Source of the DNA: Candidatus Latescibacterota bacterium
GTDB taxonomy: Bacteria; Latescibacterota; UBA2968; UBA8231
Assembly (NCBI GenBank): GCA_965261395.1
Contig: OZ253462.1
Location: 3,968,001-4,032,000, forward strand
DNA length: 64,000 bases
Direction of reading: 5' to 3'
The notes under the pieces are model-generated. The model was not told the origin of the DNA. It did not search any database and worked only from the letters and a program-made list of their open reading frames with translations. A program made the translations under genes and the position numbers. Of the stretch, positions 20,614-48,874 are shown one piece after another; position 1 is the stretch's first letter, and each line of letters starts with the position of its first letter.

Positions 20614-21672
20614 ATGGCAGAAAAGTACCGAGTGGGCATTATCGGCTGCGGCAGCATTGCCAACTACCACATGAACGGCTGGAATGGGGTGGACCAAGTC
20701 GAGGTGGTGGCGCTGGCCGACCCAGTGGCTGTGGCGCGAGAGGAGTTCGGCCAGCGGCATGGGATCGCCGAACGCTATGAGGATTTCCGCCAGATGCTCG
20801 ACGCGGAGGCGCTCGACATCGTCTCGATTTGCACTTGGCACAAGTTGCACGCGCCGATGACGATTGCCGCCTGTGCGCGCAAGCCCAAAGCCGTGCTGTG
20901 CGAAAAGCCCATGGCGACGAGTCTGGGCGATTGCAACGACATGCTAATCGCCGCCCAGCGCAATCGCGTCAAGCTGGCCATTGCCCATCAGCGCCGCTTC
21001 AATCCGGCGTGGACTTTGGCCAAGGAACTAGTAGCAGAAGGGGCCATCGGCGAGGTGCGGCAGGTCAACGCACGCGGCGGACAGGGCTTGCTCAACGATT
21101 GCTCGCACCTGTTGGACATGATGCGCTACGTGATGGGCGATCCACAGGCCGTGTGGGTGATGGGCAATATCGAGCGCAAGACCGAGCGCTTTGAGCGCGA
21201 CATCCCCATTGAGGATCGCAGCTTGTGCGTAGTGCAATTCGACAATGGGGCCATCGGCCAGCTTTTGCAGGAATTGGCCGGCCCGAACTACCAAGGCGGG
21301 ATTTTCTACGGCTCGGAGGGCATAATTGAACTCGACGAGAGCAAGGTACGGCTGCTCAACAGCAAGACTGGCACTTGGGAGGAGCGTCCGGGCGAGGGCG
21401 AGGACCCCAGCGTTGGGCAGCAGCGCGAGATCGTGGAGTGGATCGAAGGCAAGGTCGAGCATCGCGGCCAAGCGGAAAACGGCCGGGCAGCAGTGGAAAT
21501 CATCATGGCCACGTACGAGTCGGCGCGGCTACACGAGGTGACCGCGCTGCCTTTGCGGACGATGGCTTCGCCGCTGGAGGTGATGATCGAGGCGGGGGAT
21601 TTGCCGGTAGAGCGCCCGGGCCGCTACGACATCCGCGCCTTCCTGCTGCGCGGCGAGGATATGCAGCCATAG
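20614..21672 (+). CDS. Gfo/Idh/MocA family oxidoreductase (left flank of island)
   Basis: GIIGCGSIA, LCEKPMA. Confidence 0.92.
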   Translation: MAEKYRVGIIGCGSIANYHMNGWNGVDQVEVVALADPVAVAREEFGQRHGIAERYEDFRQMLDAEALDIVSICTWHKLHAPMTIAACARKPKAVLCEKPMATSLGDCNDMLIAAQRNRVKLAIAHQRRFNPAWTLAKELVAEGAIGEVRQVNARGGQGLLNDCSHLLDMMRYVMGDPQAVWVMGNIERKTERFERDIPIEDRSLCVVQFDNGAIGQLLQELAGPNYQGGIFYGSEGIIELDESKVRLLNSKTGTWEERPGEGEDPSVGQQREIVEWIEGKVEHRGQAENGRAAVEIIMATYESARLHEVTALPLRTMASPLEVMIEAGDLPVERPGRYDIRAFLLRGEDMQP

Positions 21673-21764
21673 GACCAGACGAAAATTGAGACCCATAGGA
21701 GAAAGGTGATGGCGGACTCTCTTGCCGACCAGATTGTGCGAAAGGTCGGGCCGGCCGCCAGTCT
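21451..21764 (+). repeat. Direct repeat A copy 1 (gfo 3' end, intergenic, brxF 5' end)
   Basis: Ungapped alignment to 36710-37023, about 20 mismatches in 314 bp by manual count. Confidence 0.95.
21670..21686 (+). repeat. 17-bp fragment of the 2OG oxygenase 3' end at the island left boundary
   Basis: TAGGACCAGACGAAAAT is identical to 45507-45523 and has one mismatch to 46810-46826. Confidence 0.75.
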
Positions 21765-22191
21765 TTATAATCGTCTGGTGTTGGTCGTCGCACCGGCAGG
21801 CGCAGGCAAAACCACTGCGTTGCAGGATGTGCAGAATCGCACTGGTGCGCCCTTGGTGAATGTCAACCTTGAGCTTTCGCGCCGGATGCTGGAACTGACC
21901 GAGCGCCAGCAGGCCTTGCAGCTACCTCGTCTTCTTCAAGGGATAGCCAGAGTCAGCAATAGTGGCGATGAGACCATCCTACTCGACAACATCGAAGTCA
22001 TATTCGACATTAGTTTGCAACAGGATCCGCTTCGGCTACTCCAGGGACTCTCTCGCAATAAGACTGTGGTGGCCGCATGGAACGGCACCATCGTTGACGA
22101 TTATTTGACCTATGCCGCTCCGGGGCACCCGGAGTACAGACGCTATCCGATGCGTGATTTCCTGGTAGTAAGCCCAGAGATGACGATATGA
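21709..22191 (+). CDS. brxF: BREX-3 P-loop protein BrxF
   Basis: [49 protein letters not shown]...[10 protein letters not shown]; first gene of the BREX-3 layout. Confidence 0.88.
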
Positions 22192-22225
22192 AACCAGCAA
22201 ATTCTACTGTAAGAGAGCAGATGCG

Positions 22226-25200
22226 ATGAAATACGGGGACCTGATCCAATTTGAACCTATTGAGTCCGTGATCCAGTTGCGGGACGCCAACGAAGCCACT
22301 GCCGCCCGGCGGCTTGTCGAGACCTACGTCATCTCCGAGGAGATGGCAGAAAAGCTGACGGGCTTGGTTCTTCCCCAGTTGCAGTTCGATCAGCCCACTG
22401 ACAACAAGGGGCTTCTGGTGGTGGGCAACTACGGCACGGGTAAATCCCACCTCATGTCGGTGATCTCTGCACTTGCGGAGAATCCCGACCTTGCTTCCAG
22501 CCTCAACAACGCCGATGTGGCGGCTGCTGCCGGAAAAATCGGTGGCCGGTTCAAGGTGGTCCGTACCGAGATCGGAGCCGCCACTATGTCCCTGCGAGAC
22601 ATCCTTGTGGCGGAACTGGAAGAGCAGCTTGGTGTGCTGGGAGTAAGCTACAACTTCCCCTCCGCCGATCAGGTAGTCGGCAATAAACGCTCCTTTGAAG
22701 AGATGATGAGCGCGTTCCACCAAGAATTTCCAGACCACGGTCTGCTGCTCGTGGTGGACGAACTGCTCGATTATCTGCGTACCCGCAGGGACCAAGAACT
22801 CGTCTTGGATCTGAGCTTCCTCCGTGAGATCGGCGAGGTTTGTAAAGACCTGCGATTCCGCTTCATAGCCGGCGTCCAAGAAGCCATTTTCGATAGCCCC
22901 CGCTTTTCCTTCGTGGCCGACAGTATCCGCCGTGTGAAGGATCGGTTCGAGCAAGTGCTAATTGCCCGTAGAGACGTCAAGTTCGTGGTGGCGGAGCGGC
23001 TGCTCAAGAAGACAGGCGAGCAACAGGTCAAAATACGCGAATACCTTACGCCCTTCGGCAAATTCTATGGCCAGATGAACGAGCGCATGGATGAGTTCGT
23101 CCGACTCTTTCCGGTGCATCCCGATTATATAGATACCTTTGAGCGGGTGAGCGCTGTGGAGAAGCGCGAGGTGTTGAAGACACTCTCTCTGGCCATGAAG
23201 AAAATGCTCAACCAAGACATGCCAGACGACCATCCCGGGCTTACTGCCTACGACACCTACTGGACTAACCTCCGTGAGAACCCCTCGTTTCGCGCCGTAC
23301 CGGACATCAGGGCGGTCATCGACTGTAGCCAAGTGCTGGAGTCCCGCATCCAGCAGGTGTTCACGCGCCCGGCCTATAAGCCCATGGCACTGCGGCTCAT
23401 CCATGCCCTTTCGGTGCACCGGCTTACCACTGGCGACATCTACGCCACCCTAGGCGCAACGGCCGAGGAGTTGCGGGACGGGCTTTGCCTGTATCAACCG
23501 GGTATTGAGGAGTTGGGCGGCGATCCCGCCGCCGATCTGCTCTCTCAGGTGGAGACCGTCCTCCGGGAAATTCACAAGACGGTCAACGGTCAATTCATTT
23601 CATCGAACTCGGACAACCGGCAGTTCTATCTCGACCTGAAGAAAACCGACGACTTTGATGCGCTGATCGAGAAGCGTGCCGAGAGTCTCGATGACTCCCA
23701 GCTAGACCGTTACTACTACGAGGCTCTGAAACGGGTCATGGAGTGTACGGACCAGACCTACGTCACTGGCTACAAGATCTGGCAGCACGAGCTGGAGTGG
23801 CTGGAGCGGAAGGCAGTACGGCAGGGGTATCTCTTCTTCGGCGCGCCTAACGAACGCTCCACCGCCATCCCACCGAGGGACTTTTACCTCTATTTTATTC
23901 AGCCCCTTGATGCGCCGTATTTCAAGGATGAAAAAAACTCCGACGAGTTATTCCTACGGCTCACCAACATGGACAGCGAGTTCCGCACGGCACTCGGAAA
24001 CTACGCTGCGTCTCTGGACTTGGCTTCCACTTCATCGGGGCACGCCAAGTCCACCTACGAGTCCAAGTCATCCCATTTTCTGCGGGATTTGGTGCAGTGG
24101 CTACAAAAGCATACAACCGACGTTTTCGAGGTCGCCTATCAGGGGCGTTCTAAGTCGCTCACCGAATGGGCCAAGGGTAAGTCGATCCGGGAACTGTCCG
24201 GCCTCGGCTCCCATGAGCGCATCAATTTCCGCGACTTGGTCAACACTATCGCTGGAGTTTGTCTGGAAGCGCACTTTGAGGATCAGGCACCTGAATATCC
24301 CTCCTTCTCGGTGCTCATTACGGGGACCAACCGGGACCAAGCCGCCCAGGACGCACTGAGGGCCATCGCCGGCCAAAACCGCACCAAACAGGCGACAGCA
24401 GTACTGGATGCCCTACAACTGCTCGACGGCGAACGCCTCAATCCTGACAAGTCCAAGTACGCTAAACACATCCTCGGGCTGCTCGAAAAGAAGGGCCATG
24501 GGCAGGTGGTCAATCGCTCCGAATTGATCCAGGAGGACAAGGGGGTGGAGTACATGGATAAGGATCGTCAGCGTCTGGAGCCTGAATGGGTTGCTGTCGT
24601 CCTAGCCGCGCTGGTCTATTCCGGCGATCTGGTTCTCGCCATTCCGGGCAAGAAGTTTGACGCCACCGGCCTGCCGCAATTGGCAGGGACTAGCGTGGAC
24701 GAACTCGCGCAGTTCAAGCACATTGAACGGCCCAAAGACTGGAATCTGCCGGGTCTCAAGGCCCTATTTGAACTGCTCGGTCTCACGCCCGGCTTGGCAC
24801 AGCTAGTCACCCAGAACGAGGAAGACCCGGTCCGACAGTTGCAGAAAGCCATTTCCGAATCAGTGGAAAAGCTGGTGCTCCTGCAGCAGAGCCTGCAACG
24901 CGGTCTGATTTTTTGGGACCGGAACCTGTTGGCCGAGGAAGAAACACAGAAATTCCGCGCACGGCTCGATGAGACTAAGACCTTCCTAGAAACGCTCCAG
25001 GTATATACTTCGCCCGGTAAGCTCAAGAATTTTCGCTACGACGCTCAAGAGGTCGCATCTCATCGGGAGGGGCTCGATTCCCTAGCTGAGATCGAATCCC
25101 TCCAAGGACTAGTGGCCGATCTCGGCACTACTGCGTCCTTCCTCTCCACCGCCGAGGCGGTGCTGCCTGAGAAACACGAGTGGGTGAACAAGACGAAAGA

Positions 25201-25951
25201 GGCGCGTGATGAGGTTCTCGCCCAGCTCGGCGATCCAGACCAGCGCGGCGCAGACTTCCGCCAGCAGATCCAGCGCAAATTGGCTGACCTCAAGACGGAA
25301 TATCTACAGGTATACTTGGGGTTACATGCTAAGGCGCGGTTAGGCGTGAACCACGACAAGCGCAAGATCGAGCTGATGAACGACGAGCGGCTCAAGGTGC
25401 TGAAGAAGCTATCTACTATTGAGTTGATGCCGCGCCAGCACCTTACCGATTTTCAAGATCGACTAGCTGGATTGGAGAGTTGCTTTATCCTCACAGAACA
25501 AGAGATGGACACCGCGCCCGTCTGTCCGCATTGTGGCTTCAAACCAAGCGCGGAGCCGACTATCACTCCTACGGGAACGGTGCTGGACGATTTGGACGAC
25601 GAACTGGATAATCTGGTGGCCAACTGGACCCAAACGCTACTGACCAACTTGGAGGACCCGACTACAAAGGGCGACCTAGACCTGCTCAAACCCGAATCCA
25701 AGAAGCTGGTGAACGGCTTCATCGATAAGCGGGTCCTGCCGGATGAACTCGACCAGGACTTCATCCACGCCTTGGGCGAGGTGCTTTCCGGGCTCCAGAA
25801 GGTACCGGTCAAGACCGCTAACCTGCGCGCTGCCCTGCTCTCCGGCGGTTCACCGGTAACGCCGGTGGAAATGAAGAAGCGGTTCGAGGAGTACCTGGAC
25901 GAACTCACTAAAGGCAAAGAGCCCGACAAGGTAAGGATCGTGCTGGAGTGA
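22226..25951 (+). CDS. brxC: BREX-3 large ATPase (DUF6079, BrxC/PglY equivalent)
   Basis: [18 protein letters not shown] start, GNYGTGKSH Walker A, VVDE Walker B, C-terminal CPHC; operon position. Confidence 0.85.
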
Positions 25952-25955
25952 ACAC

Positions 25956-27806
25956 ATGACGCAGGATGAACTGATAGAACTGCTCAACGCTCATGAATGG
26001 CGCGATGTTGAGTTCAAGGAAGCGCAACGCGCCGTGCCGCGAAATGCCTATGAGACGGTATCTGCTTTTGCAAACACCGAGGGCGGTCATCTTGTGTTCG
26101 GCGTCAAGAAGAGCGGGCAGGACATGGAGATAGTCGGCGTTCTCGATGTCGATAAAGTGCAGAACGAGTTCCTGACTACGTTGCGGCAACCCGACAAGAT
26201 AAGCATGGTGGTGGATGTTCGGGAGGGACTGCACAAGTACGACGACTCGGATCTGCTTATCTTCTACGTGCCTGAAGTGCATCGTTCGCACAAGCCCGTC
26301 TTCCTGAACGGGGATATTCGCCGCTCGTTCGTTCGCAGCGGAGGAAGCGACATTCGCTGCTCGGACAACGAGCGGGATCGATTTCTCATGGACGCGGCGA
26401 TGGAACGATATGACGGCCAATCTGTCAATCTTGACTTGAGTACGGCGCTCGACTTGGAGAGCATTAAGTGGTACCGGAGGACTTATGAAGGACGGCCGGG
26501 GAACCTATCCTATGCAACGCTATCCGACACGGAATTCCTCAACGAGATGGGCTTGCTTGTTGAACAGCACAGCCAAGTATCTCCATCGCGCGCAGCTATT
26601 CTTTTGTTTGGCACCAATGCGGCCTTCCGACAACTTCTGCCACGTCCTGTAGTGGATTGCCAGCGATTTGCGCTGGCTCGTGACAGGGCCGATGCTGGTG
26701 AACGCTGGAATGACCGACTTGTGCTCGACGAGAATCTCATCCGCACTTGGCAGTCCCTTGTCGATTGGTACCAGAGGTTCGCGGAAACGCCGTTCCGAAT
26801 TGATCCCACATCTCTGCAGCGAGATGATACGCCGCCGGACTACCGCGCCTTTCGCGAATCAATGGTCAACCTTCTCATCCACCAGGATTACTCCGATCAT
26901 TCTCGTAAGGCGAGTATCCGCCACTATACCGACCAGACCGTTTTCTGGAATCCCGGCGATGCCTTCGCCACCGATGCTGACCTACTCGAACCTGGTGAAA
27001 AGGAGGTTCGCAATCCCCGAATCGTGACTGCTTTCCGGCGCATCGGGCTGAGCGAGAATGCCGGATGGGGACTGCGCGATGTCTTTCGCAACTGGCAGCA
27101 GTTGGGCTACGTTCCACCCACTATTGCCAATATCAAGAGACACAAGTGCTTTGAGCTTATCCTAAGAAGAGAAGAACTTCTGTCAGAGCAGCAGATTCTT
27201 TTTCAGGCAAGCCTCGGCGTACAACTCACCGACGAACAGGCAAGATTATTCGCATTTGGCTGCCGGGAAAAGACAATCACGCTTTCGCAGATCAAGGCCG
27301 TAACGGGTCTTGCAGGACCGGATGCCATAGAGCTTACCGACGCTTTGGTCACAAAAGTACTCTTCAGAACCATCGAAGCCGACAGAAATTACGCCTTGGC
27401 TGAGCATCTGAAGGATCGGTTTCGTCAAACTGACCAAGCTGCTGACCAACCTGATGCACGGGGTGAGGACTTGGTCACTGTACAAGTGCAGCCCAAGCCG
27501 CCCGACTTGTCCACTGCACAAGTTCATCCTTTGACAGAGTTGTCTGCAACACACTGGAAAATCATTGATTTATGCGATGTGCCCCGTCGTCTGGCCGATA
27601 TTCTGGAAGCTCTTGGCGTGACCAATCGAGGTTATTTCAAGGAACACCACCTTAATCCGTTGATTAAGTCTGGGATTGTGGCAATGACCAACCCGGAGAA
27701 ACCCCGGGCGTCGAACCAGCAATATGTCATTACAGGAGCGGGAGCCCAACTAAAGGCACGGCGCATGTCGGGAGAAGATGACCGAAGTAAGGACAAAGAT
27801 GGCTAA
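25956..27806 (+). CDS. AlbA_2 (Schlafen-like) + HATPase_c_4 + winged-helix protein inserted in BREX operon
   Basis: VEFKEA, SAFANTEGGHLVFGV, RESMVNLLIHQDY, RNPRI...ENAGWG, C-terminal MTNPEKPRASNQQY. Confidence 0.8.
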   Translation: MTQDELIELLNAHEWRDVEFKEAQRAVPRNAYETVSAFANTEGGHLVFGVKKSGQDMEIVGVLDVDKVQNEFLTTLRQPDKISMVVDVREGLHKYDDSDLLIFYVPEVHRSHKPVFLNGDIRRSFVRSGGSDIRCSDNERDRFLMDAAMERYDGQSVNLDLSTALDLESIKWYRRTYEGRPGNLSYATLSDTEFLNEMGLLVEQHSQVSPSRAAILLFGTNAAFRQLLPRPVVDCQRFALARDRADAGERWNDRLVLDENLIRTWQSLVDWYQRFAETPFRIDPTSLQRDDTPPDYRAFRESMVNLLIHQDYSDHSRKASIRHYTDQTVFWNPGDAFATDADLLEPGEKEVRNPRIVTAFRRIGLSENAGWGLRDVFRNWQQLGYVPPTIANIKRHKCFELILRREELLSEQQILFQASLGVQLTDEQARLFAFGCREKTITLSQIKAVTGLAGPDAIELTDALVTKVLFRTIEADRNYALAEHLKDRFRQTDQAADQPDARGEDLVTVQVQPKPPDLSTAQVHPLTELSATHWKIIDLCDVPRRLADILEALGVTNRGYFKEHHLNPLIKSGIVAMTNPEKPRASNQQYVITGAGAQLKARRMSGEDDRSKDKDG

Positions 27807-33200: not shown

Positions 33201-33254
33201 ATCACGGTGGTGAAGGAAGCAAAGACAGGAAGGGATGGGAATAAAACTTGAGGA

Positions 33255-36037: not shown

Positions 36038-36116
36038 CTACCGGACAAGTCCCCAAGTCCACTTCAGCGATACCAGACAACGGATAAGGGCGAACCAACT
36101 TCGGAGATAGGTAGTC

Positions 36117-36494
36117 ATGTCGAGACTCGAAACACCCCTCACACGACGCTATTGGCGAGAGATCGGCGGCACCCTGATAGAGGAGTTCCCGGCCGTCCGT
36201 TCTGGCCCGAATCAAGGTAGGAGATTGCTTGATGGCGTCGTGCTCTTGGATTCTCCACACTTGATTGCGAACCATCGGGAAGTTGAAATCGAGAATCGAG
36301 ATATTGTGGTGATTCAAACAAAGGCCAGCCGACTGGGCATGTATCTCCTGGGTCAGGCGCTATTCTCGCGACATCTGATGATGCCGTTTCGGCCCAGTAG
36401 CGTAGACACGGTTGCAATTTGCACCAAAGGTGATGCCGTGCTGGAACCTTTGGCTGCGGAATATGGAATAAAGGTGGTGGTGTACCAGGACTAA
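36117..36494 (+). CDS. Small putative PD-(D/E)XK-fold nuclease
   Basis: RRLLDGVVL...IVVIQTKASRL...LLGQAL resembles the D...(E/Q)xK...GQ pattern of NucS/Mrr-like nucleases. Confidence 0.5.
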   Translation: MSRLETPLTRRYWREIGGTLIEEFPAVRSGPNQGRRLLDGVVLLDSPHLIANHREVEIENRDIVVIQTKASRLGMYLLGQALFSRHLMMPFRPSSVDTVAICTKGDAVLEPLAAEYGIKVVVYQD

Positions 36495-36709
36495 CTCAGC
36501 AGGCGTGCCGAGGTCTTGTCGGTCTCTTCGGCCTGCACGCTCGGGGCTTGGTGCGATACGGATTGAGGTAGCGACAGGCCATCAAACCGTATTGGGAGTC
36601 CTGCCGAAGAAGCCGCAAACCCTCTTCAGGGAGCTTGTCCGGCCCGTGCGAGCGTTTATCGCCTTGACAGAGAGTCCAAAAAAGAGGCTTTATTTTCCTT
36701 ATACTCGAT

Positions 36710-37023
36710 AAGGTCGAGCATCGCGGCCAAGCGGAAAACGGCCAGGCGGCAGTGGAGATCATCATGGCCATGTACGAGTCGGCGCGACTACACGAGGTGC
36801 CCGCGCTGCCTTTGCGGACGATGGCTTCACCGCTGGAAGTGATGATCGAGGCAGGAGATTTGCCGGTAGAGCGCCCAGGCCGCTACGACATCCGCGCCTT
36901 CCTGCTGCGCGGCGAGGATATGCAGCCTTAGAACCAGACGAAAATTGAAACCCACAGGAGAAAGGTAATGGCGGACTCTCTTGCCGATCAGATCATGAGA
37001 AAGGTCGGGCCGGCCGCCAGTCT
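36710..37023 (+). pseudogene. Direct repeat A copy 2: orphan gfo 3' end plus truncated brxF start (ATG 36968)
   Basis: About 94% identical to 21451-21764; brxF similarity stops after 18-19 codons. Confidence 0.92.
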
Positions 37024-37025
37024 AA

Positions 37026-37125
37026 AGCTGTCGCGGGAAAAATCCCGGAGACGATCCTCCAAGAGGATTCTAAACTCCTCATGTGGTATGACCAAGCAAT
37101 AACACGAATGGGAGATGAGGCATGA
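37026..37125 (+). pseudogene. Direct repeat B copy 2: orphan pglX C-terminus
   Basis: Encodes AVAGKIPETILQEDSKLLMWYDQAITRMGDEA* versus AVAEKIPETILQEDSKLLMWYDQALTRTGEDG*; its stop overlaps ATG 37122. Confidence 0.9.
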
Positions 37126-39890: not shown

Positions 39891-41139
39891 CAGCCCGGAA
39901 GAACTGTTGCAGAAGATACGCCTTGGAGAAGATACTTCGCTGGAACTCAAGGCCGTCCGGTTCAGGGGCGACCGGGTTTCCGGTCCTGGTCGCGATGAGT
40001 TGGCCGACGAGTTGGCAGCTATCGCCAATACTCACGACGGTGTACTTGTCTTGGGCGTAGACGACAAGACGCGAGACATCATAGGCATTCCGATAGACCA
40101 CCTTGATGCTGTCGAAAGCTTTGTCTATGAGATTTGCAATGAGAGCATCACGCCGCCAGTCCATTTTCGTTCTTTCCGTATGCAGCTCCCTGATGCCACG
40201 GGGAATCTCCGGTCCGTGCTCAACGTAGAAATCCCACGCAGCCTTTTTGTCCACAGGAGCCCTGGAGGATATTTCTTTCGGCAAGGAAGTTCAAAACGAG
40301 AGATGCCGCCCGATTATCTGACACGGCTGTCCCAGCAACTAAGCCAAGTTCGGCTGATTCGATTCGAGGAACAATCCGTGCCGCAATCGAGCAGGGACGA
40401 CTTATCCGAAAAGTTGTGGGCCAACTATATAACAAGATCTGATGAATCCGCGGGTATCGTGCTCCTTAAACGCGGTCTTTTGTCGAAGGAAGAAAGCGGG
40501 GCCGTCCGGGCTTCGGTTGCTGGCATTCTGGTCTGTTGCGAGGAGCCAGAGCGTTTTTTGCCTAATGCCTATATTGAAGCCGTGCGCTATCGCGGAAAAA
40601 AGCGGGATTCCAATTATCAGATAGACGCCCAAAAAATTCGCGGCCCGCTGAATCGACAGATCGAACAAGCTATGACCTTTCTCAGGAAAAACCAGACGGT
40701 CTCAGCCGTAAAAATTCCGCATCGGGTCGAAGTGCAGCAGTTCAGCGAAAGAGCGGTTTTTGAAGCGATTGTCAATGCTGTGGCTCACCGCGATTATTCC
40801 ATTTTCGCCTCGAAAATACGGTTCTTCATGTTTGAAGATCGGTTGGAAATCTACTCGCCAGGTACTCTCCCGAATACCGTGACCATTGACAGCATCTCCC
40901 TCCGTCAGGCTACCCGAAACGAACTGATTACCAATCTGCTTACAGAGACGCCAGTGGCGGGAACGGTCGGCGATGTGGGACGTAGTTTTTACATGGAAAA
41001 GCGAGGCGAGGGTGTTCCAATCATTTTTGACGAGAGCGAAAAACTTTCCGGAAAGAAGCCTGTTTATCGACTTATTGACGACTCCGAACTGCTACTGACC
41101 ATTTTTTCGAGGGGCACGGAACGTGCGGATGAGCACTGA
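39883..41139 (+). CDS. AlbA_2 + HATPase_c_4 (RecG-C-like) protein
   Basis: GEDTSLELK, AAIANTHDGVLVLGVDD, EAIVNAVAHRDY, EIYSPG, RNELI, MEKRGEG. Confidence 0.85.
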   Translation: MFNSPEELLQKIRLGEDTSLELKAVRFRGDRVSGPGRDELADELAAIANTHDGVLVLGVDDKTRDIIGIPIDHLDAVESFVYEICNESITPPVHFRSFRMQLPDATGNLRSVLNVEIPRSLFVHRSPGGYFFRQGSSKREMPPDYLTRLSQQLSQVRLIRFEEQSVPQSSRDDLSEKLWANYITRSDESAGIVLLKRGLLSKEESGAVRASVAGILVCCEEPERFLPNAYIEAVRYRGKKRDSNYQIDAQKIRGPLNRQIEQAMTFLRKNQTVSAVKIPHRVEVQQFSERAVFEAIVNAVAHRDYSIFASKIRFFMFEDRLEIYSPGTLPNTVTIDSISLRQATRNELITNLLTETPVAGTVGDVGRSFYMEKRGEGVPIIFDESEKLSGKKPVYRLIDDSELLLTIFSRGTERADEH

Positions 41140-41172
41140 TGTAAGCGGTCGGTATTTAGGATCGGATGCACG

Positions 41173-41253
41173 ATGAGTAACTGGCGCAACCAGATTCTTC
41201 ACGAATTCACGCCCAACGTAGCCCGTCTGACACTGGTCGCCGACCCTGACGGG
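41173..41253 (+). pseudogene. Direct repeat C copy 2: orphan pglZ start
   Basis: ATG-initiated MSNWRNQILHEFTPNVARLTLVADPDG, then abrupt junction into the antisense strand of the sialidase-fusion gene. Confidence 0.9.
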
Positions 41254-43462
41254 GCACCTGTTCTACCGACCCGTGCCAGAAGGCGATCCGCTCGCGCTTC
41301 CACGTATAGGTAATGGCCATGCCGACTTGGGTGGGGATGATCGCCGGATAGGAGTACTCGCCGTCGGCGGTTTCTAAGTCCAAGCGGCGCGGCCACGTCT
41401 GCCCATTGTCCGTTGAGAGTAGGATCGACAGCGGGGTGCGCGTGCGCTCCACCGGGTTACAGACGAGGGCGAGGGTGCCGTCGTGGAGGAGGGCTACGTC
41501 GAGGCCGCTGTTGTTGTTGGGCAGGTCCGTCGGATAGAGCGGCGACCAAGTTCGCCCACCGTCCGCTGAATCGCTGCGACCGATCCGCCCGCAGGTGCTG
41601 CGGGCCAGCAGATGCACCTGCCCTGGGGCCGATTCCCACAGCGTCGGCTGGATCGCGCCGCGGCCGGTAAAGAGCGAGCGGTCGCGCACTATGAGATCGC
41701 TGGCCTGCCAAGTCGCGCCTCGGTCCGCGCTGCGATCGACAAAGACCTCCCATCCATCCCTTTCCAGCGAGGCCCCGGCCAGCCACGTGCCGTCGGCGAG
41801 CACGAGGAGCTTGTTTTTGACCGGCCCGCGCCCGCCCCGGTCGCCCGGCACTAGTGCTCGCGGCTCGGTCCAAGTTTGGCCGTCGTCGGTCGATTCTATC
41901 ACCCAAGTCTCCCAATCGGCTATCCGCTCGCCCACCTTGAAGAACAGATAGACGCAGCCGTCGCCGCTGGCGTGGAGCACCGGATTCCAGTGGGCGCAGT
42001 CCCGCACCTTGGCCAAGCAGCGCGGGGCCGACCAACGTCCGTGCCGGCGCTCGGCTCCCCAGATCCCGACATCCGCGCGGCCCTCGCGGGTGCCACCAAA
42101 CCACGCGGCGAGCAACGCGCCGTTTTTGAGCAGCACCAAGGTTGAGGCGTGGCACTGGGCGAAGGGCCGGTCGTCGGCAAAGAGGTGCTCGCGGATGTGG
42201 ATCAAGTGGCGCAGGTAGTCTCCGTAGGTGGACAGATCGAGCGACTGGCCGCCGGCCTCAATGGCTTGCTGGATCGCGGCGAGGGGTGCGTCCTGCAAGT
42301 CGCGCCCATCGCGCTGGCAGATCCGCGCCGTCGTGCCGGCCGCAAAGCCCATCTGGGCACAGGTGGCTTGGATGCGGAAGGAACTCATGGCCATCTGGTC
42401 GCCCGCGGCCGAGCGCCCGGCTACTAGCAGATTAGCGGATCCTTTGGGCACTAGACTACGCAGTGGGATGTGATACGGCTCGACCATGGTGGTAATGCCC
42501 GTGCCGGCGCGCTCGACGCGGTCGGGCCAGTGGTAGTCGAGATGGTAGGTGCCCACTGCCACTGCGTCGGGGAAAGTGCAGGCATGGGTGACGTCCTCCT
42601 CGGTCAGGAGATATTCGCCGACAATGCGCCGTCCCTCGCGGGCACCGATGTGCCGGGAGACCGAGGCGAGGACGTGGGTGTCGAGTCGGGTGCCGCCGTA
42701 GCCCTTCGTCTGCAAGTAGTAAATCAGACCCATCATCTGCCGCCGCGCATGTAGTTCGGCGCGGGACAGGCTCTGGCCATCGGCCGCGTCAAACCCCACG
42801 ACCTTCATCTTGACTTCGACCTTGCCGGAGGGGAAGACGTGCAAGGTGGTCATGGGCAGGGCCTCGTCGTCGTCCCAAGTCGGGCAGCCCGGCGGCAAGA
42901 AGGGGACGACGGGTCGGCCGGTGTCCCACAGCACAAAGTACAGGCTCATGGGCAGTTGTTTGTTGGCCCCTTCGTGGATGGTCGCAAACCCGGCCGCGTG
43001 GGCTAGGGCGCAGTCGCCGGTGGCATCGACGACCATGCCGGGCCGGAACTCGATGCGGTCCGAGGCGCAGGCAACCTCGACCGAGGCGATGTGCCCGCCA
43101 GCGCGTTGCGCCGTCAAGGCGCGGGCGTGGAAGAGAATTTCGACGCCGGCTGCGGCGACCATTTCTTGCAAAAAGAAGGCGCACAATTCCAAGTCGTACG
43201 CACGGCGGTCGGCGAGCGGGTCGTACTCGGCGATGAGGTTGTGCTGGGCCAAGGTCGCGACGAGGCGGGCAAAAGGGGGGTTGACGCGCTGGCTGTCGCC
43301 GCAAAAACCAGCGACGCCCCCAGCCGTGCCTTGGCCTCCCAAGACATTGGCCGGCTCGACAATGGCAACGGTGGTGTCGGGCGTTTTGGCGGCGAGCGCG
43401 GCAAAGGTGCCGGCCATGCCGCCGCCGAGGACCAAGGTGTCGATGGGGCGGGTGATGGGCAT
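41207..43462 (-). CDS. FAD-dependent oxidoreductase fused to BNR/sialidase-like beta-propeller
   Basis: GGGMAG, DATGD, REGRRIVG, PYHIPLRSL; then CHAST and Asp-boxes STDDGQTW, SADRGATW, SADGGRTW, STDNGQTW, EYSYP. Confidence 0.85.
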   Translation of the reverse strand: MPITRPIDTLVLGGGMAGTFAALAAKTPDTTVAIVEPANVLGGQGTAGGVAGFCGDSQRVNPPFARLVATLAQHNLIAEYDPLADRRAYDLELCAFFLQEMVAAAGVEILFHARALTAQRAGGHIASVEVACASDRIEFRPGMVVDATGDCALAHAAGFATIHEGANKQLPMSLYFVLWDTGRPVVPFLPPGCPTWDDDEALPMTTLHVFPSGKVEVKMKVVGFDAADGQSLSRAELHARRQMMGLIYYLQTKGYGGTRLDTHVLASVSRHIGAREGRRIVGEYLLTEEDVTHACTFPDAVAVGTYHLDYHWPDRVERAGTGITTMVEPYHIPLRSLVPKGSANLLVAGRSAAGDQMAMSSFRIQATCAQMGFAAGTTARICQRDGRDLQDAPLAAIQQAIEAGGQSLDLSTYGDYLRHLIHIREHLFADDRPFAQCHASTLVLLKNGALLAAWFGGTREGRADVGIWGAERRHGRWSAPRCLAKVRDCAHWNPVLHASGDGCVYLFFKVGERIADWETWVIESTDDGQTWTEPRALVPGDRGGRGPVKNKLLVLADGTWLAGASLERDGWEVFVDRSADRGATWQASDLIVRDRSLFTGRGAIQPTLWESAPGQVHLLARSTCGRIGRSDSADGGRTWSPLYPTDLPNNNSGLDVALLHDGTLALVCNPVERTRTPLSILLSTDNGQTWPRRLDLETADGEYSYPAIIPTQVGMAITYTWKRERIAFWHGSVEQVPRQGRRPVSDGLRWA

Positions 43463-43591
43463 AGGGGCATCCGTTTGTTGGCGGGAATGGGAGTAATATA
43501 CGCATTCAGGAGGGCAGAGAGCAGACGGCGGCGGGGCGTTTGGCACTATTCAACGCCCCGTCTTCCTAAGACACTTATAGAAACCGCGCAG

Positions 43592-43654
43592 GGTTTGTCC
43601 GCTGACATGGCGAAGAAGAAGGCCAGCACGACGCGGCGGCGCTGGCGCGTTAGG
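43592..43654 (-). pseudogene. 63-bp fragment of the 2OG oxygenase near-3' region
   Basis: Matches 46831-46893 with 3 mismatches; encodes LTRQRRRVVLAFFFAMSADKP. Confidence 0.9.
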
Positions 43655-43826
43655 GAAAAAAATTCAACTCTTAATTTTTTCACGCAACGGACATTCCCTG
43701 ACCGCTTGAAACGTATATTCATCGGAGATAGTTGGAGCCGTGCTCCCAACCGAGGCAATCCACAAGGCTGATCGACGCCAATGCTTCTAAAGCGAGCCAA
43801 TTACCTACTTACCGGAGGATATCCCG

Positions 43827-45416
43827 ATGCGCGGTCTATCTTATTTCTTATTTTCTCTTTTCCTCCTCTCCTGCTCACAAGAGCTGCCTCTTTCCTCAGA
43901 TTCCCCCAGCGCTGCTGCATCTAAAGAGGCGAATGATGCGCCAGAAGGGTCGATAGCAGTCCATCCGGCCGGCAAAGTCACTGACGCCGACTGCCCCTTG
44001 TGCGGCTTCCTTGGCGATGACGAGCACACCATCCCCGAGGGGCAGGGTGGGCATACGGCACCGGAAGAAGAAGAGGACGAGGAGACGGAAGAAGAGGACG
44101 AGGAGACGGAAGAAGAGGACGAGGAGACGGAAGAAGAGGACGAGGAGACGGAAGAAGAGGACGAGAATGATCGGGCCGCGCTGGTCGCGCTCTATGAGGC
44201 AACCGGCGGCGACAACTGGCATTCTAACAGCAACTGGCTCAGTAGTGCTCCCCTAAAGGACTGGTATGGCGTTGATACGAATTCAGAGGGCCGGGTTACG
44301 AAATTGTGGGTGCATGAGAATGGCTTGCGTGGGTGGCTACCATCCGCATTGGGCAATCTCGAAAAACTGGAAGAGCTATGGCTAAGTGGCAACCAGTTAA
44401 GTGGGTCGATACCGCCTCAATTGGGACAACTTGCCAACCTGCGGGAAGTATATATCCGCTGGAATCGGTTCACCGGATGCCTTCCCCAAGCGTGGCAGAC
44501 GATCGAGGAAAATGATTTTGAAAGCGTGAGTCTTTCCTTCTGTGGCGATACGGCTGGCTCGTCAGACTCGGAGCCAGACTCGGGGCCAGATCCAGACCCG
44601 AAGCCAGATCCGGAAAAGGTCGGCTCTTCCGGCGCATTCCAAATCGAATTGGTCTATCGGAGTTCTATCTCCTCCAAGGAAAAGGTCCTTCTCCGGCGAG
44701 CAGCGGATCAATGGGAGGAAGCTATTACGGGCGATCTGCCCGACATCAGTTTTGTGTCTTCCCCTTATGATAAGTATATCTGGGACGTCGGAATGCGGGT
44801 GACCGTCACGGATGTAGTAGACGATGTACGCATTTTCGTGGGCTCGGGCACCTTTACGGGCTTATCTATGGCGGGTAGAGGAGGGGTAATCTCGGTACGG
44901 TCCGAAGGGAAGTTGCCGATCCTAAGTATCCTCGATATTTCCCCTTTCTTGTTCGGATATGACGACGATGATCTCTATAGGGTGATGCTCCATGAGATAG
45001 GACACTGCTTGGGGTTTGGAATCGTTTGGGAGGACTTGGAGCTTTTGCAGCACAATTACTTTTTTGGTGTGATGGCGCGACGGTGGTTTGATGTCTTGGG
45101 CGGTTCAAGCTATCGCGGGGAGAAAGTTCCCACTGAACCAGGGGGTGGCCATTGGCGCACATCCGTTTTTGGCGACGAACTGATGACCACTCGTCCGGTG
45201 AGTCCCTACAGGGCTCCCCTCTCAGCCATCACGATCGCTTCGATGAACGACATAGGCTACGAAGTCAACTTGGACGTCGCCGAAGAGTATAAGGTGCCTA
45301 GCCCGTCGGCGGCTAAGCCCGTGGCCGACGAGACTTGGCCGGGCTGCCAGATTCTCCACCAATCCATCGATGTCGTCGCCGAAGACGGGCACATTTTGGA
45401 CACCATCGACCCCTAA
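43827..45416 (+). CDS. Lipoprotein with acidic repeat, LRR domain and leishmanolysin-like (M8) zinc peptidase
   Basis: GGAGG RBS; lipobox LLSC; DRAALVALYEATGG LRR cap, LWLSGNQLSGSIPPQLGQL; HEIGHCLGFG, HW, ELM. Confidence 0.85.
   Translation: MRGLSYFLFSLFLLSCSQELPLSSDSPSAAASKEANDAPEGSIAVHPAGKVTDADCPLCGFLGDDEHTIPEGQGGHTAPEEEEDEETEEEDEETEEEDEETEEEDEETEEEDENDRAALVALYEATGGDNWHSNSNWLSSAPLKDWYGVDTNSEGRVTKLWVHENGLRGWLPSALGNLEKLEELWLSGNQLSGSIPPQLGQLANLREVYIRWNRFTGCLPQAWQTIEENDFESVSLSFCGDTAGSSDSEPDSGPDPDPKPDPEKVGSSGAFQIELVYRSSISSKEKVLLRRAADQWEEAITGDLPDISFVSSPYDKYIWDVGMRVTVTDVVDDVRIFVGSGTFTGLSMAGRGGVISVRSEGKLPILSILDISPFLFGYDDDDLYRVMLHEIGHCLGFGIVWEDLELLQHNYFFGVMARRWFDVLGGSSYRGEKVPTEPGGGHWRTSVFGDELMTTRPVSPYRAPLSAITIASMNDIGYEVNLDVAEEYKVPSPSAAKPVADETWPGCQILHQSIDVVAEDGHILDTIDP
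44067..44165 (+). repeat. Perfect 21-bp tandem repeat (4 full + 1 partial) encoding EEEDEET
   Basis: GAAGAAGAGGACGAGGAGACG repeated. Confidence 0.95.
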
Positions 45417-45505
45417 GACATGCAAGCCTAGCTAGGTTCAATTGATCTGAACAGGAGGATTGTGAACGCAATTATTTAGTTCCAATCCATCCGATCAGAG
45501 TCCCT

Positions 45506-45546
45506 CTAGGACCAGACGAAAATCGTCGGTTTGTCCGCTGGCATGG
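45506..45546 (-). pseudogene. 41-bp fragment of the 2OG oxygenase 3' end including stop
   Basis: Encodes MPADKPTIFVWS* versus native MSADKPEIFVWS* (46809-46849). Confidence 0.85.
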
Positions 45547-45742
45547 ACTTCCGGGTCGATCTAGTCCCTGAAAGGTTTCATTCATGGGTTGTGCCCGATA
45601 CAGCCGAACCCCGCACGGCCCCGTCCTCCCCGCTGTGCTGCCGCCTTGGCATGGATATTGCGATTGCAATTAGGAACGGACGTTACGCGGTCGGCTTCCC
45701 CATAGACCCGACCCGTCCCCTCAACCATCCAAGGCATTGTTT

Positions 45743-46618
45743 ATGACCGAATTCGATACCATCTCCAAACACCTCATCCACACCTACCCGGCTGACTTCG
45801 CCCGCTTTGCCCTTCAGCACGACGACCTTGAGGTGCTCGACGTCATCGACACCGAGCAACCTACCGTCGAGGCCCACCGCACCGATAGCCTCATCCGCGT
45901 GCGCGTCGGCGACGAGGAAGCCTTGGTGCATCACGAATTTCAAACCACCGATAGTACCCCGCCCATGCCGCGCCGCATGGCGGGCTATATCGGGCGCGGC
46001 ATTGAGCAGCACGGTCAGCCGATCTACTCCAGCGTCATCTATCTGCGCCCAGCGGCCGGCCGCACCGATCCGGGGCACTATATCCAAGAGCGGCACGGCT
46101 TCCGCGTCTTGGTGCAATACCAAGTGATTCGGCTGAGTGAATTAGACGGCCAACACATTCTCGACGGGGGACATTCGGGCTTGCTGCCGTTTGCACCGTT
46201 GATGCAGCGGCCGGCCGGGGTGGATGCGGAGGCATGGCTGCGCCAGTGTGTGAACCGGGCGCAGCAGGTGCCGATGGAAGAGGTGCTCAAAGCCAATTAT
46301 CTGGCCGATCTTGCTATTTTGAGCGGGTTGGTGTATAGATTAGAAACGATTATGGCCATCATCGCGGAGGAGACCATGTACGAATCGTCGGTAGTGCAGT
46401 ATTTCACGGAAAAGGGCATTGAGCAAGGCATTGAGCAAGGGATCCAAGAAAGCATCCAAGAAGTGTTGGCCCTGCGCTTTCAGCCGGAGGATATGCACCC
46501 GTTGGCCAGCCGCATTGGGGCCATTGACGATGTGCAGCGCCTCAAGCAGTTACATCGGGCGGCCGTCCAGATGCCCAATCTCGAAGCCTTCAGGTGCCTG
46601 TTAGACACCGACGAGTAG
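45743..46618 (+). CDS. Rpn/YhgA-like PD-(D/E)XK nuclease
   Basis: FDTISKHL, RTDSL, HHEFQT, MPRRMAGY, LLPFAPLM, EKGIEQGIEQG repeats. Confidence 0.8.
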   Translation: MTEFDTISKHLIHTYPADFARFALQHDDLEVLDVIDTEQPTVEAHRTDSLIRVRVGDEEALVHHEFQTTDSTPPMPRRMAGYIGRGIEQHGQPIYSSVIYLRPAAGRTDPGHYIQERHGFRVLVQYQVIRLSELDGQHILDGGHSGLLPFAPLMQRPAGVDAEAWLRQCVNRAQQVPMEEVLKANYLADLAILSGLVYRLETIMAIIAEETMYESSVVQYFTEKGIEQGIEQGIQESIQEVLALRFQPEDMHPLASRIGAIDDVQRLKQLHRAAVQMPNLEAFRCLLDTDE

Positions 46619-46808
46619 GCCCGCCGCGTACCTCAATGACTCAGTTTGAAATCTTACGTAAAGCGGCGTGGAGCTTCTCCAAGAGGCGAGGATTCAGCTA
46701 TACCAAAGCCTGCTTGCCGAACAAGGCCCGTTGCACGGTCTGAAGGCCGCGAGAGAATCCATCCCCGCCCGCTGCGCTAGGCAACCTTATCCTTTCTTTT
46801 TTGAAATC

Positions 46809-47657
46809 CTAAGACCAGACGAAAATCTCCGGTTTGTCCGCCGACATGGCGAAGAAGAAGGCTAGTACGACGCGGCGGCGCTGGCGCGTTAGGCGCTCTA
46901 CTTCGTGGATGTTTTCGGTGCAGAAGAAGTAGAGATCGCCCGGCGTCAGGCGAACTTGGACGCGGGGGATGCGGTGTTCGTCGACGTACTCGGCGAAGCG
47001 GTCTTGGCGCAGGACTTCCTCGACTTGGGGTTGGGTGCCCCAGCAGCGGTAGATAAAGGGTTCGTCGGCGCTTGCTTCATTGCTGGTCTGCAAGCACAAC
47101 ACCCCGGCGAACTGGCGCTGGAAGTCGGCGACTGCGTATTCGTAGCCGGGGCGGGAGCGCTTGGCGACGGAGTCGTAGTGGGGCCTGTGGCCTTCGGCGG
47201 CGTGATACATGCGGAAGATAGCCGGGCCGTAGAGCCGCCCGTCTGGTTCGCGCGCGGTTTGTACTACTTTGCCCTCGGCCAGATCGGATAGGGTCGAGTA
47301 CATCGTGCGCACTGGGTCTGCAAACCCCTCGAAGAGCGTGGCGAATAACTCGTGGGTGTGGGCAGCGTGGGTGAAGAAGGTGTCTGGATCGGCTCCGAGC
47401 CGTCCGAGGCTGGTGCCCAAGTCGAGATAGGGGCCACCGCTTAGCTGGGAAGCTTGACCCACGGTGGCCGGATCGAAATAGCCCCGCTCTTCAAAGCGGC
47501 GCATCAAGTCGCGGCAGTGATCGGGCGGGTAGGCACCCCGCAGGACCACGGCGGGGACGTCGCCGGCGGCTAAGGCGGTGAGAGGGCGGGGCAGGCTGTG
47601 CAGGAGAGCGGCCGTGCTGCGGCCTTCGACGGGTGTCCAGGCGTTGGGCTGGGTCAT
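46809..47657 (-). CDS. 2OG-Fe(II) oxygenase superfamily protein (right flank of island)
   Basis: PHYD (HxD), PGDLYFF, NIHEV, RVVL. Confidence 0.75.
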   Translation of the reverse strand: MTQPNAWTPVEGRSTAALLHSLPRPLTALAAGDVPAVVLRGAYPPDHCRDLMRRFEERGYFDPATVGQASQLSGGPYLDLGTSLGRLGADPDTFFTHAAHTHELFATLFEGFADPVRTMYSTLSDLAEGKVVQTAREPDGRLYGPAIFRMYHAAEGHRPHYDSVAKRSRPGYEYAVADFQRQFAGVLCLQTSNEASADEPFIYRCWGTQPQVEEVLRQDRFAEYVDEHRIPRVQVRLTPGDLYFFCTENIHEVERLTRQRRRVVLAFFFAMSADKPEIFVWS

Positions 47658-48758: not shown

Positions 48759-48874
48759 GGATAGTTCCTTTCTTTTGGTAGCTCAACACAGGTTTTCGGC
48801 GTATAATGTCCCTCTGAATACGTAGAGCGAAACCCAACCGGCGTCAAGGTGCCGGACAAACGCGAGGCTTGACT

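Follow-up and report, generated by a model that had tools for sequence, protein, structure and literature searches.

Organization of the gfo–oxygenase interval

The window analysed here is a stretch of 64,000 nucleotides (nt) from the genome of a Candidatus Latescibacterota bacterium (assembly GCA_965261395.1, contig OZ253462.1, positions 3,968,001 to 4,032,000), in which two convergent genes bound an interval of 25,136 nt filled with defence and other cargo genes and with short copies of the 3′ ends of the two flank genes. The left flank gene, gfo (20614–21672, plus strand), encodes a GFO/IDH/MocA oxidoreductase (Pfam PF01408, 8.8e-25). The right flank gene (46809–47657, minus strand) encodes a WelO5-like 2-oxoglutarate (2OG)/Fe(II) oxygenase (PF22814, 7.9e-20), the 3′ end of which, referred to here as the tail, is the source of the tail copies, or scars. 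The genome of the window is designated G000, and the same-genus relatives G001 and so on.

Pairwise matches and shuffled-sequence controls bore out the tail copies that had been predicted from the sequence of the window, all of which have the same orientation (plus strand). Scar 1 (21670–21686) abuts gfo and overlaps its stop codon TAG (21670–21672), and scar 2 lies at 36929–36945; each corresponds to the first 17 nt of the oxygenase tail. Scar 1 is probably a trimmed remnant of the ancestral gfo/oxygenase junction. Scar 3 (43592–43654), which was cut on both sides and lacks the first 22 nt, comprises nt 23–85 from the stop and is identical to the native tail (46831–46893) at 60 of 63 positions. 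Scar 4 (45506–45546; 41 nt) matches 46809–46849 at 36 of 41 positions and ends exactly at the left end of an Rpn-like element. A 13-mer of the tail, ACCAGACGAAAAT, occurs four times in the window (starts at 21674, 36933, 45511 and 46814), always on the plus strand; its chance expectation in the shuffled window was 0.03, and four copies were reached in none of 100 shuffles. The original prediction had offered this motif as a possible core of an attachment (att)-like site. In the whole 6,549,484-base single-contig genome, the motif was found four times in the forward and never in the reverse orientation, and a reversed-pattern control gave no match in the whole genome. Since all four genomic copies sit in the gfo–oxygenase locus, the motif is locus-specific, and the possibility of a dispersed repeat was rejected.

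No integrase or transposase domain was detected with Pfam (E ≤ 0.001) in the 22 main open reading frames (ORFs) between 16.6 and 50.1 kb of the window, as the original prediction had anticipated. Its proposal that each tail copy marks an insertion step of its own could not be upheld, because the copy at 36929 belongs to a 314-nt repeat with which a second BREX (bacteriophage exclusion) island begins, and either entered or was duplicated together with the left end of that island.

Cargo blocks of the window

The cargo blocks were found as predicted, with a Ppl/TrlF gene and a Schlafen-like gene in the second BREX copy as additions. The first block is a probable BREX type 3 island, designated island A (21706–36037, plus strand; Pfam and PADLOC). 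A BREX type 3 operon comprises BrxF, BrxC/PglY, PglXI, BrxHII, PglZ and BrxA, and five of these six genes match PADLOC models strongly in island A: BrxF (21706–22191, 9.5e-75), BrxC/PglY (22226–25951, E=0, 2050 bits), PglXI (27778–30603, E=0, 1339 bits), PglZ (33255–35294, E=0, 1025 bits) and BrxA (35291–36037, 4.4e-100). The BrxHII position is occupied by a DEAD/DinG-like helicase (30600–33200), which matches PADLOC PDC-S28 and DinG-like models, not a BrxH model, and an extra gene between BrxC and PglXI (25956–27806) encodes a Schlafen/AlbA_2 ATPase; all of these genes are on the plus strand. With PADLOC, the PglXI methyltransferase was identified in island A and a restriction gene was not found; the other blocks contain neither a restriction (R) nor a modification (M) gene. 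Islands about 90% identical to island A are carried by G018 and G020. To the right of island A lies a small module (36102–36513, plus strand) with a 125-amino-acid (aa) ORF (36117–36494) that has no family match; the module is also present in G011, G012 and G021.

The second island, designated island B, begins with the 314-nt repeat (36710–37023, plus strand), which is 93.6% identical to 21451–21764 and consists of the last 222 nt of gfo (36710–36931), scar 2 and the first 59 nt of brxF from 36965. Next to it are the last 100 nt of a pglXI gene (37026–37125; 85% to 30504–30603), joined to the brxF fragment by an internal deletion. A gene for a Ppl/TrlF-family anti-phage ATPase (37122–39890; PADLOC Ppl, 4.5e-143) occupies the slot of the helicase of island A; it matched NCBIfam TrlF above the cut-off (2.2e-191) and Ppl_antiphage below the cut-off (1.7e-170). 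It is followed by a gene for a Schlafen/AlbA_2 and HATPase_c_4 protein (39829–41139; Pfam) and by the first 79 nt of a pglZ gene (41175–41253; 94.9% to 33290–33368), which form the right stump of the island; these features are likewise on the plus strand. The junction at 41253 shows about 4 nt of microhomology. Judged from this arrangement, the "skeleton BREX" of the original prediction is a second, allelically distinct island that follows island A in tandem, has an internal deletion and is truncated behind the start of pglZ. The pglXI–pglZ slot was variable, containing the helicase in island A, the Ppl and Schlafen-like genes in island B and three small ORFs in G018, and being empty in G020. 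In both BREX copies of the window (30600–33200 and 37122–41139), the downstream gene overlaps the pglXI stop by the same 4 nt.

The gene for an FAD-dependent oxidoreductase with a BNR (sialidase-like) domain (41207–43546, minus strand; PF12831, 6.9e-75; PF13088, 8.8e-73), designated FAD-BNR, has had its native 3′ end replaced by the antisense pglZ stump (41207–41253), so that it encodes 779 aa versus 740 aa in six relatives (39 additional codons). The next module (43658–45505, plus strand; ORF 43827–45416) encodes a leucine-rich repeat (LRR) protein. In the predicted "LRR-peptidase" block, the LRR part was confirmed by Pfam, and the peptidase part received only weak matches (E about 0.002–0.003). 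The module matches G010, where it lies on the other side of FAD-BNR, at 89–90%, and the match continues through scar 4 to 45546. Within the LRR gene, a 21-nt tandem repeat of five to six units (44046–44171) encodes an acidic Glu/Asp-rich stretch. Upstream of the gene, the sequence at 43673–43781 recurs at six other places in the genome with 72–97% identity; either an upstream region common to the members of a paralogous gene family or a small repeat element could account for this.

The last block is an Rpn-like multi-copy element (45547–46630, 1.08 kb, plus strand; ends defined by alignment; ORF 45737–46618) putatively of the recombination-promoting nuclease/putative transposase family, which is separated from the oxygenase by a 178-nt spacer and has seven copies in the genome by tblastn (63–100%). 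The ORF matched NCBIfam TIGR01784 over residues 221–248 only (1.8e-5; 24.7 bits against a cut-off of 52.1) and had no Pfam match even at E ≤ 10; its nearest Atlas clusters, identified by a language-model match, are named Rpn family (score 0.97). We rejected the idea that the element makes its own target duplication: a search of 600 nt of left flank of the seven copies found a repeat only at the window copy, although this search missed a 49-nt pair elsewhere. That pair (92%) bounds a segment of G000 at 5281592–5283565 containing a truncated Rpn-like copy (5282749–5283486).

The empty site and the cargo in related genomes

The flank genes were searched for in 24 metagenome-assembled Candidatus Latescibacterota genomes of the same genus. 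Orthologues of the oxygenase were present in 19 of them (88–93% aa identity, one partial) and those of gfo in 15 (89–97%). Thirteen relatives have both genes on one contig, and in all 13 the genes are convergent and bound one interval, which ranges from −4 to 17,278 nt. The site is empty in G006, in which the TAG of gfo and the TAA of the oxygenase share two bases (TTAG; interval −4 nt). In two smaller genomes without gfo, a remnant of its 3′ end still adjoins the stop codon of the oxygenase (35–40 nt in G003 and 90 nt in G008). The overlapping stops of G006 and these remnants agree with the prediction that the two genes were ancestrally adjacent and convergent, and the comparison of relatives suggested with it yielded both an empty site with abutting stops and different cargo in the other genomes.

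The cargo varied among the intervals, which contain BREX in G018 and G020, Schlafen-like genes in G001, G011, G012, G013 and G021, LRR proteins in G001 and G010, DUF2971 genes in G009 and G021, a SIR2-like gene in G021 and a ParA-like gene in G001. FAD-BNR was full-length in 10 of the 13 relatives' intervals and reduced to stumps in G004 and G013; only the empty G006 had none. It is usually paired with a PQQ dehydrogenase–ankyrin gene, which G000 lost at the deletion joint 43591/43592. Given this distribution, the FAD-BNR/PQQ pair is regarded as an old resident; the FAD-BNR block is the commonest resident in the intervals of the relatives, not a late cassette added in a step of its own, as had been proposed. 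The order of modules is permuted between genomes, being gfo, tail, LRR, tail, FAD-BNR, oxygenase in G010 and FAD-BNR, tail, LRR, tail, Rpn, oxygenase in G000. None of the 76 ORFs in the intervals of the 12 filled relatives contained an integrase, resolvase or transposase domain (E ≤ 1e-5), as in the window.

Scars of both flank genes

Extra oxygenase-tail copies were detected in 9 of the 13 relatives, together with a 35-nt junction piece in G012. All of the extra copies have one orientation and most begin at the stop codon. Their right ends lie about 9, 15, 17, 35, 37, 41, 48, 68, 74, 77, 79, 85 and about 165 nt from the stop, that is, at no fewer than 12 distinct positions. In G004 and G018, the position of scar 1 is taken by 68 and 77 nt of tail, respectively. 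Some scars have orthologues in other species, for example a 79-nt copy common to G009 and G021, and the 41-nt copy beside the Rpn-like element, which G000 shares with G021. A decayed oxygenase fragment of about 146–166 nt (78% identity) between two cassettes of G021 (L036, 13772–13917) is the longest of the tail scars observed.

The scars had been thought to copy one host gene only. We found that gfo 3′ fragments recur too, in eight lengths (19, 26, 40, 93, 127, 140, 207 and 222 nt). The fragment is 222 nt in G000 and 207 nt in G018; after a Schlafen-like gene, it measures 140 nt in G013, 127 nt in G012 and 93 nt in G011, and there are also pieces of 40, 26 and 19 nt. The last 19 nt of gfo come immediately after a 35-nt tail in G011, the permuted joint that a duplicated junction should have at its inner edge. 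Microhomology at the window junctions, where both parents can be guessed, was 1–6 nt.

The clearest single insertion was observed in G018, where a 13.6-kb BREX island lies between two 284-nt direct repeats. In each copy, the last ~207 nt of gfo are joined to the first ~77 nt of the oxygenase tail, so that the empty-site junction is present on both sides of the island. The two copies have 2 differences between them and differ from the empty junction of G006, the sister of G018 in the flank-gene tree (support 100/99), at 22 of 284 positions. From its sequence, the 17-nt scar that G000 and G020 carry beside gfo resembles the G018 form with ~200 nt deleted at a 2-nt microhomology.

Repeat-bounded segments elsewhere in the genome

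Comparison of the G000 genome with itself gave 964 direct versus 26 inverted repeat pairs of 35–450 nt, 0.2–40 kb apart; many of the direct pairs are in repeat-protein arrays. After filtering for pairs of at least 88% identity, 40–400 nt in length, 0.5–30 kb apart and isolated from other pairs, 53 direct pairs and 1 inverted pair remained. As read from the table of pairs, 22 of the 53 have a copy that includes the 3′ end of an intact ORF situated beyond the segment. In two of these 22, at genome positions 4996724 (L097) and 5214777 (L094), the left copy extends across the 3′ ends of a convergent pair of ORFs, and the repeat is single-copy in relatives.

Five segments were tested for empty sites against 30 same-genus genomes, and clean empty sites, with a single repeat copy and abutting flanks, were found for three of them: L094, which carries Hachiman (262-nt repeat; at least 13 empty relatives), L095, which carries a block resembling a restriction–modification (RM) system (192-nt repeat; at least 8 empty relatives including the sister species; cargo in none of the 30 genomes), and L097 (156-nt repeat; at least 10 empty relatives). 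Small defence systems are enclosed by many of the repeat pairs: PADLOC detected Hachiman, PsyrTA, SoFic, HEC-03B, type II RM pairs, a GmrSD-like gene, a caspase with PDC-S02 and others in the cargo of the segments. The 70 ORFs in the cargo of 20 repeat-bounded segments included no integrase domain and four insertion sequence transposase parts, the latter in three segments.

In the whole genome, Phage_integrase domains were found three times above the cut-off and once weakly, at 3.61, 4.23, 5.68 and 5.76 Mb, outside the window (3.968–4.032 Mb), and resolvases or serine recombinases were not found. The genome thus has about 50 similar repeat-bounded segments and almost no integrases, and so few recombinases for about 50 different targets make a site-specific explanation implausible. 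These data indicate that the phenomenon is not specific to the gfo–oxygenase locus, which is a case of a genome-wide insertion mode that is already named and mechanistically unsolved.

A proposed route of insertion

We consider it probable, though well short of certain, that the gfo–oxygenase junction is, within this one genus, a recombination hot spot at which DNA is inserted with long target duplication by one-sided homology, with no site-specific recombinase. From the anatomy of the locus, its empty site, the variable scars of both genes, the failure to find integrases and the genome-wide recurrence, we infer this mechanism and the following order of events. The starting point would be the convergent gfo and oxygenase genes overlapping by their stop codons (TTAG). 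Linear DNA from a relative, carrying the intact 3′ end of a flank gene and cargo, would pair by homologous recombination inside that gene, and the far end of the fragment would be joined illegitimately, with 0–6 nt of microhomology, inside the 3′ region of the same gene or just past the junction. The intact gene end would thereby arrive with the cargo, and the resident old end would stay behind as a scar. Because the genes overlap, only events that rebuild both gene ends would survive, which would explain why the scars are always gene tails.

New blocks would be stacked in later rounds, in agreement with the stepwise accretion of the original prediction, and in these rounds the scars may act as out-of-register landing pads for homologous recombination. 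Their use as landing pads would account for the tandem second BREX island and for the permuted order of modules: an incoming gfo–BREX piece could pair with the gfo fragment to the right of island A and append a second island instead of replacing the first. The copies of the tandem-island repeat are 6% diverged, which is about the inter-species distance. Blocks and scars would finally be trimmed by microhomology deletions.

The polarity of such an event was examined at L095, using sites that distinguish the sister species G022 from G001. In the upstream flank gene of G000, 25 sites were sister-like and 10 had the other allele. From about 60 nt before the repeat and through its cargo-proximal copy, the other allele prevailed (14 versus 7), and in the displaced copy beyond the cargo the sites were again mostly sister-like (10 versus 4). 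The two copies differ at four sites, and at all four the cargo-proximal copy is foreign and the displaced copy resident. This pattern favours a linear fragment with a homologous anchor in the flank gene and an illegitimate joint inside that anchor, an outcome suggested by the allele distribution. Of the two mechanisms put forward in the original prediction, homology-facilitated illegitimate recombination is accordingly preferred on account of the allele pattern at L095. The att-like core used by a recombinase acting in trans is disfavoured by the end positions, at least 12 in number, and by the same style of event at many unrelated sites.

Several points weigh against this reading. The polarity comes from one recent locus with few informative sites, and shared ancestral polymorphism could mimic the switch of alleles. 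The repeats of G018 are near-identical and have lineage-specific changes, so that an in-situ duplication, a Campbell-type insertion from a close donor or gene conversion would fit at least equally well. L096 and L098 were complex and gave no clean empty site against the relatives compared, as sequence is shared beyond the repeat or one flank is absent from them. The ratio of 53 to 1 depends on the filters chosen and comes from a single genome without a control, and tandem paralogues add direct pairs. The order of the insertions is uncertain, since the species tree is largely without resolution; the tree of 4.6 kb of flank-gene sequence beside the hot spot is star-like, with 10 of 20 inner forks open. 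ORFs were called with a simple longest-ORF rule. ComEC and DprA are present in the genome, yet they are also found in non-competent controls and are no proof of competence or DNA uptake. Ku is absent from the genome.

Alternative explanations

One alternative is a Campbell-type cycle, in which repeat-bounded cassettes excise as circles through recombination between their repeats and re-insert by a single homologous crossover in the junction copy that they carry. The G018 island between two 284-nt copies of the whole junction is exactly what a single crossover would produce, and the two tandem BREX islands of the window and the opposite order of LRR and FAD-BNR in G000 and G010, each beside a tail copy, would also be expected; an invade–amplify–release hypothesis for RM systems is moreover stated in the accessible text of PMC2853133. 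However, the cycle leaves the origin of the first duplication without an account, and at L095 the foreign tract begins about 60 nt outside the repeat, which a circle bounded by the repeat alone cannot give. Circular or excised forms were not seen among the public contigs, whose short length would have hidden them. We regard the cycle as unlikely, if a serious contender. Site-specific recombination at ACCAGACGAAAAT in the oxygenase tail, by a recombinase encoded elsewhere, would fit the single orientation of most copies and their start at the stop, the presence of the 13-mer in all copies but 43592–43654 and its restriction to this locus; integrase-dependent defence islands with 14-bp repeats at a gene 3′ end are known (PMC12595487, as far as its accessible text describes them). 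A fixed att site is nonetheless disfavoured by the 12 or more end positions, which extend from 9 to about 165 nt and define no single fixed crossover core. Furthermore, the copy without the 13-mer and the duplicated gfo ends do not fit it, the G018 repeat is 284 nt long and spans both genes, and no recombinase was found in the 13 loci; the genome, with three clear tyrosine recombinases and no serine recombinases, has about 50 segments at unrelated targets. Such recombination is, in our judgement, highly improbable here.

The Rpn-like nuclease could also drive the events, by cutting near the junction and promoting RecA-independent joining, or the element could itself be the vehicle; Rpn proteins of Escherichia coli reportedly promote RecA-independent recombination. 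Suggestively, the end of scar 4 coincides precisely with the left boundary of the element, with the same junction in G021, and Rpn-like genes or remnants are present in the intervals of five relatives (G002, G004, G011, G021 and G022), adjoining a scar in G011, G021 and G022. The element has seven genomic copies, that at 5282749 being inside the 49-nt direct repeat pair. But flank repeats accompany only two of the seven (window and 5.28 Mb), an Rpn-like gene is missing from the cargo of most filled relatives and of the clean events L094, L095 and L097, and the family label comes from a below-cut-off hidden Markov model (HMM) match and a language-model match; this explanation is very unlikely. 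That a metagenome assembler stacked strain variants in tandem is scarcely credible. All of the genomes are metagenome-assembled, and public sequencing runs hold co-existing variants of the region (a 282-nt deletion, and the FAD-BNR start joined to the oxygenase stop). Against an artefact, scars of the same kind occur in at least 13 independent assemblies, some of them common to species at orthologous junctions, and the repeat copies have diverged by 6% and break off abruptly where non-homologous DNA begins. In addition, contigs from three runs, each of a different study and one of them possibly the source of the assembly, span the scar 4/Rpn junction with no mismatch.

For this assembly check, contigs of four public runs, mostly under 1.5 kb, were compared with 35800–47200, long-range order and circles being beyond their reach. 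The contigs covered all 30 bins of this region in three runs. A junction was counted as bridged with at least 31 letters on each side; the junctions other than scar 4/Rpn reach at most 30 on one side, those at 36710 and 43654/43655 having exactly 30. The variant without 36748–37029 (282 nt), from which the larger part of the gfo fragment is missing along with the tail and the brxF stub, was well supported in run X2 (255-letter side) and weakly in X19 and X1. Other variants join the start region of FAD-BNR to the oxygenase stop, as in G010 (window 43463–46808). At the 93% threshold used, other strains or species may be the source of these variants, which show that structural variation at the scars is continuing.

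Relation to known systems and significance

Many anti-phage systems lie in variable spots between conserved genes without mobile-element genes, and their entry route is an open question. The gfo–oxygenase locus provides an unusually complete series from an empty site with overlapping stops, through a clean insertion between 284-nt duplications, to stacks that comprise as many as four blocks and bear scars of both flank genes. The closest precedent is RM-system insertion with long target duplication, described by Furuta, Abe and Kobayashi (2010, PMC2853133), who cite Nobusato et al. (2000, Gene 259:99) as the original report (their reference 37). In the accessible text of PMC2853133, the inserts of this class are shorter than 20 kb and have no mobility genes, and the direct repeats of 46–423 bp are single-copy at empty sites; the repeats are of variable length and often span the start or stop of flanking genes, and the mechanism is left unexplained. 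In common with that description, direct repeats longer than 30 bp versus a single copy at the empty site were observed here (G018/G006, L094, L095 and L097), and the 13.6-kb insert of G018 is below 20 kb and has no integrase or transposase domain. The outermost pair of the window itself measures no more than 17 nt, and a 314-nt pair bounds island A; the 25 kb of the window are a stack of several blocks, including one Rpn-like putative transposase.

In contrast to that class, as far as the same text defines it, the window lacks the combination of R and M genes by which membership is operationally decided and so falls outside the class; the same style of event brought other cargo. The cargo here comprises BREX, Ppl, Schlafen-like and non-defence genes, and elsewhere in the genome Hachiman, PsyrTA, SoFic, HEC-03B and also RM. 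A single junction here carries a stack of several events, with scars of both flank genes, the allele-polarity test points to one-sided homology, and the host belongs to an uncultured phylum. A phenomenon described for RM systems is thus extended to a wide range of defence systems; our literature search, made at the level of the titles listed and with subscription journals outside its coverage, found no report linking non-RM defence systems to long target duplication. We would go further only tentatively: long-target-duplication insertion by one-sided homology may be the main entry route in this genus for all kinds of defence systems and for host-interaction genes, a generalization that we think more doubtful than the mechanism itself.

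Homology-facilitated illegitimate recombination, known from transformable Acinetobacter and Streptococcus pneumoniae, combines one homologous anchor with a microhomology joint and involves no recombinase; its classical products replace or delete resident DNA beside the anchor. The events proposed here would share the single anchor, the microhomology joint and the dispensability of a recombinase, but would differ from the classical ones in that the joint falls inside the anchor region and so produces a duplication. Staphylococcal cassette chromosome (SCC) and pseudo-SCC elements at rlmH and tycheposons at tRNAs are integrase-dependent islands at gene 3′ ends. Similar islands with IntY at the transfer-messenger RNA gene form tandem arrays, according to the accessible text of PMC12595487. 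Like these integrase-dependent islands, the present locus has defence cargo, a restored gene 3′ end and an array punctuated by partial end copies, and some cargo-only members of such arrays are also without an integrase. Those islands use a fixed core, of 14–15 bp in the examples considered, and a tyrosine or serine recombinase, whereas here the junctions are variable, both flank genes are copied and no recombinase was found. The locus also resembles integron cassette arrays in having promoter-poor cassettes separated by a recurring short element; unlike in integrons, which combine an intI gene and an attI site with cassettes that end in attC, no tyrosine recombinase (intI) is present in the window and the recurring element is coding sequence of the flank genes. 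Different cassettes between the same two core genes are characteristic of the minimal mobile elements of Neisseria and the core defence hot spots of Pseudomonas, where exchange is ascribed to homologous recombination in the flanks. To our knowledge, duplicated flank-gene ends are not involved in these descriptions, and the scars of the present locus, in contrast, record additions, not simple replacements.

The mechanism proposed here is concrete and testable: a homologous anchor would be combined with an illegitimate joint lying within it, and selection for intact flank genes would act as the filter. Its scars could be read for the direction and donor of each event. If correct, it would settle a mechanism left open since 2000 and make the stacked scars a record of donor, anchor and joint; if it applied beyond this genus, the filling of integrase-free defence hot spots between core genes would be accounted for in bacteria at large.

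A duplicated region to the right of the oxygenase

A further duplication was noticed one junction to the right of the oxygenase, in the divergent intergenic region (48737–48870) between a second GFO-family gene (47715–48758, minus strand) and a gene for a DAO oxidoreductase (48869–50125, plus strand). In several relatives, this region is doubled around inserts of about 280 nt or 1.1 kb, an arrangement of the same long-duplication style.

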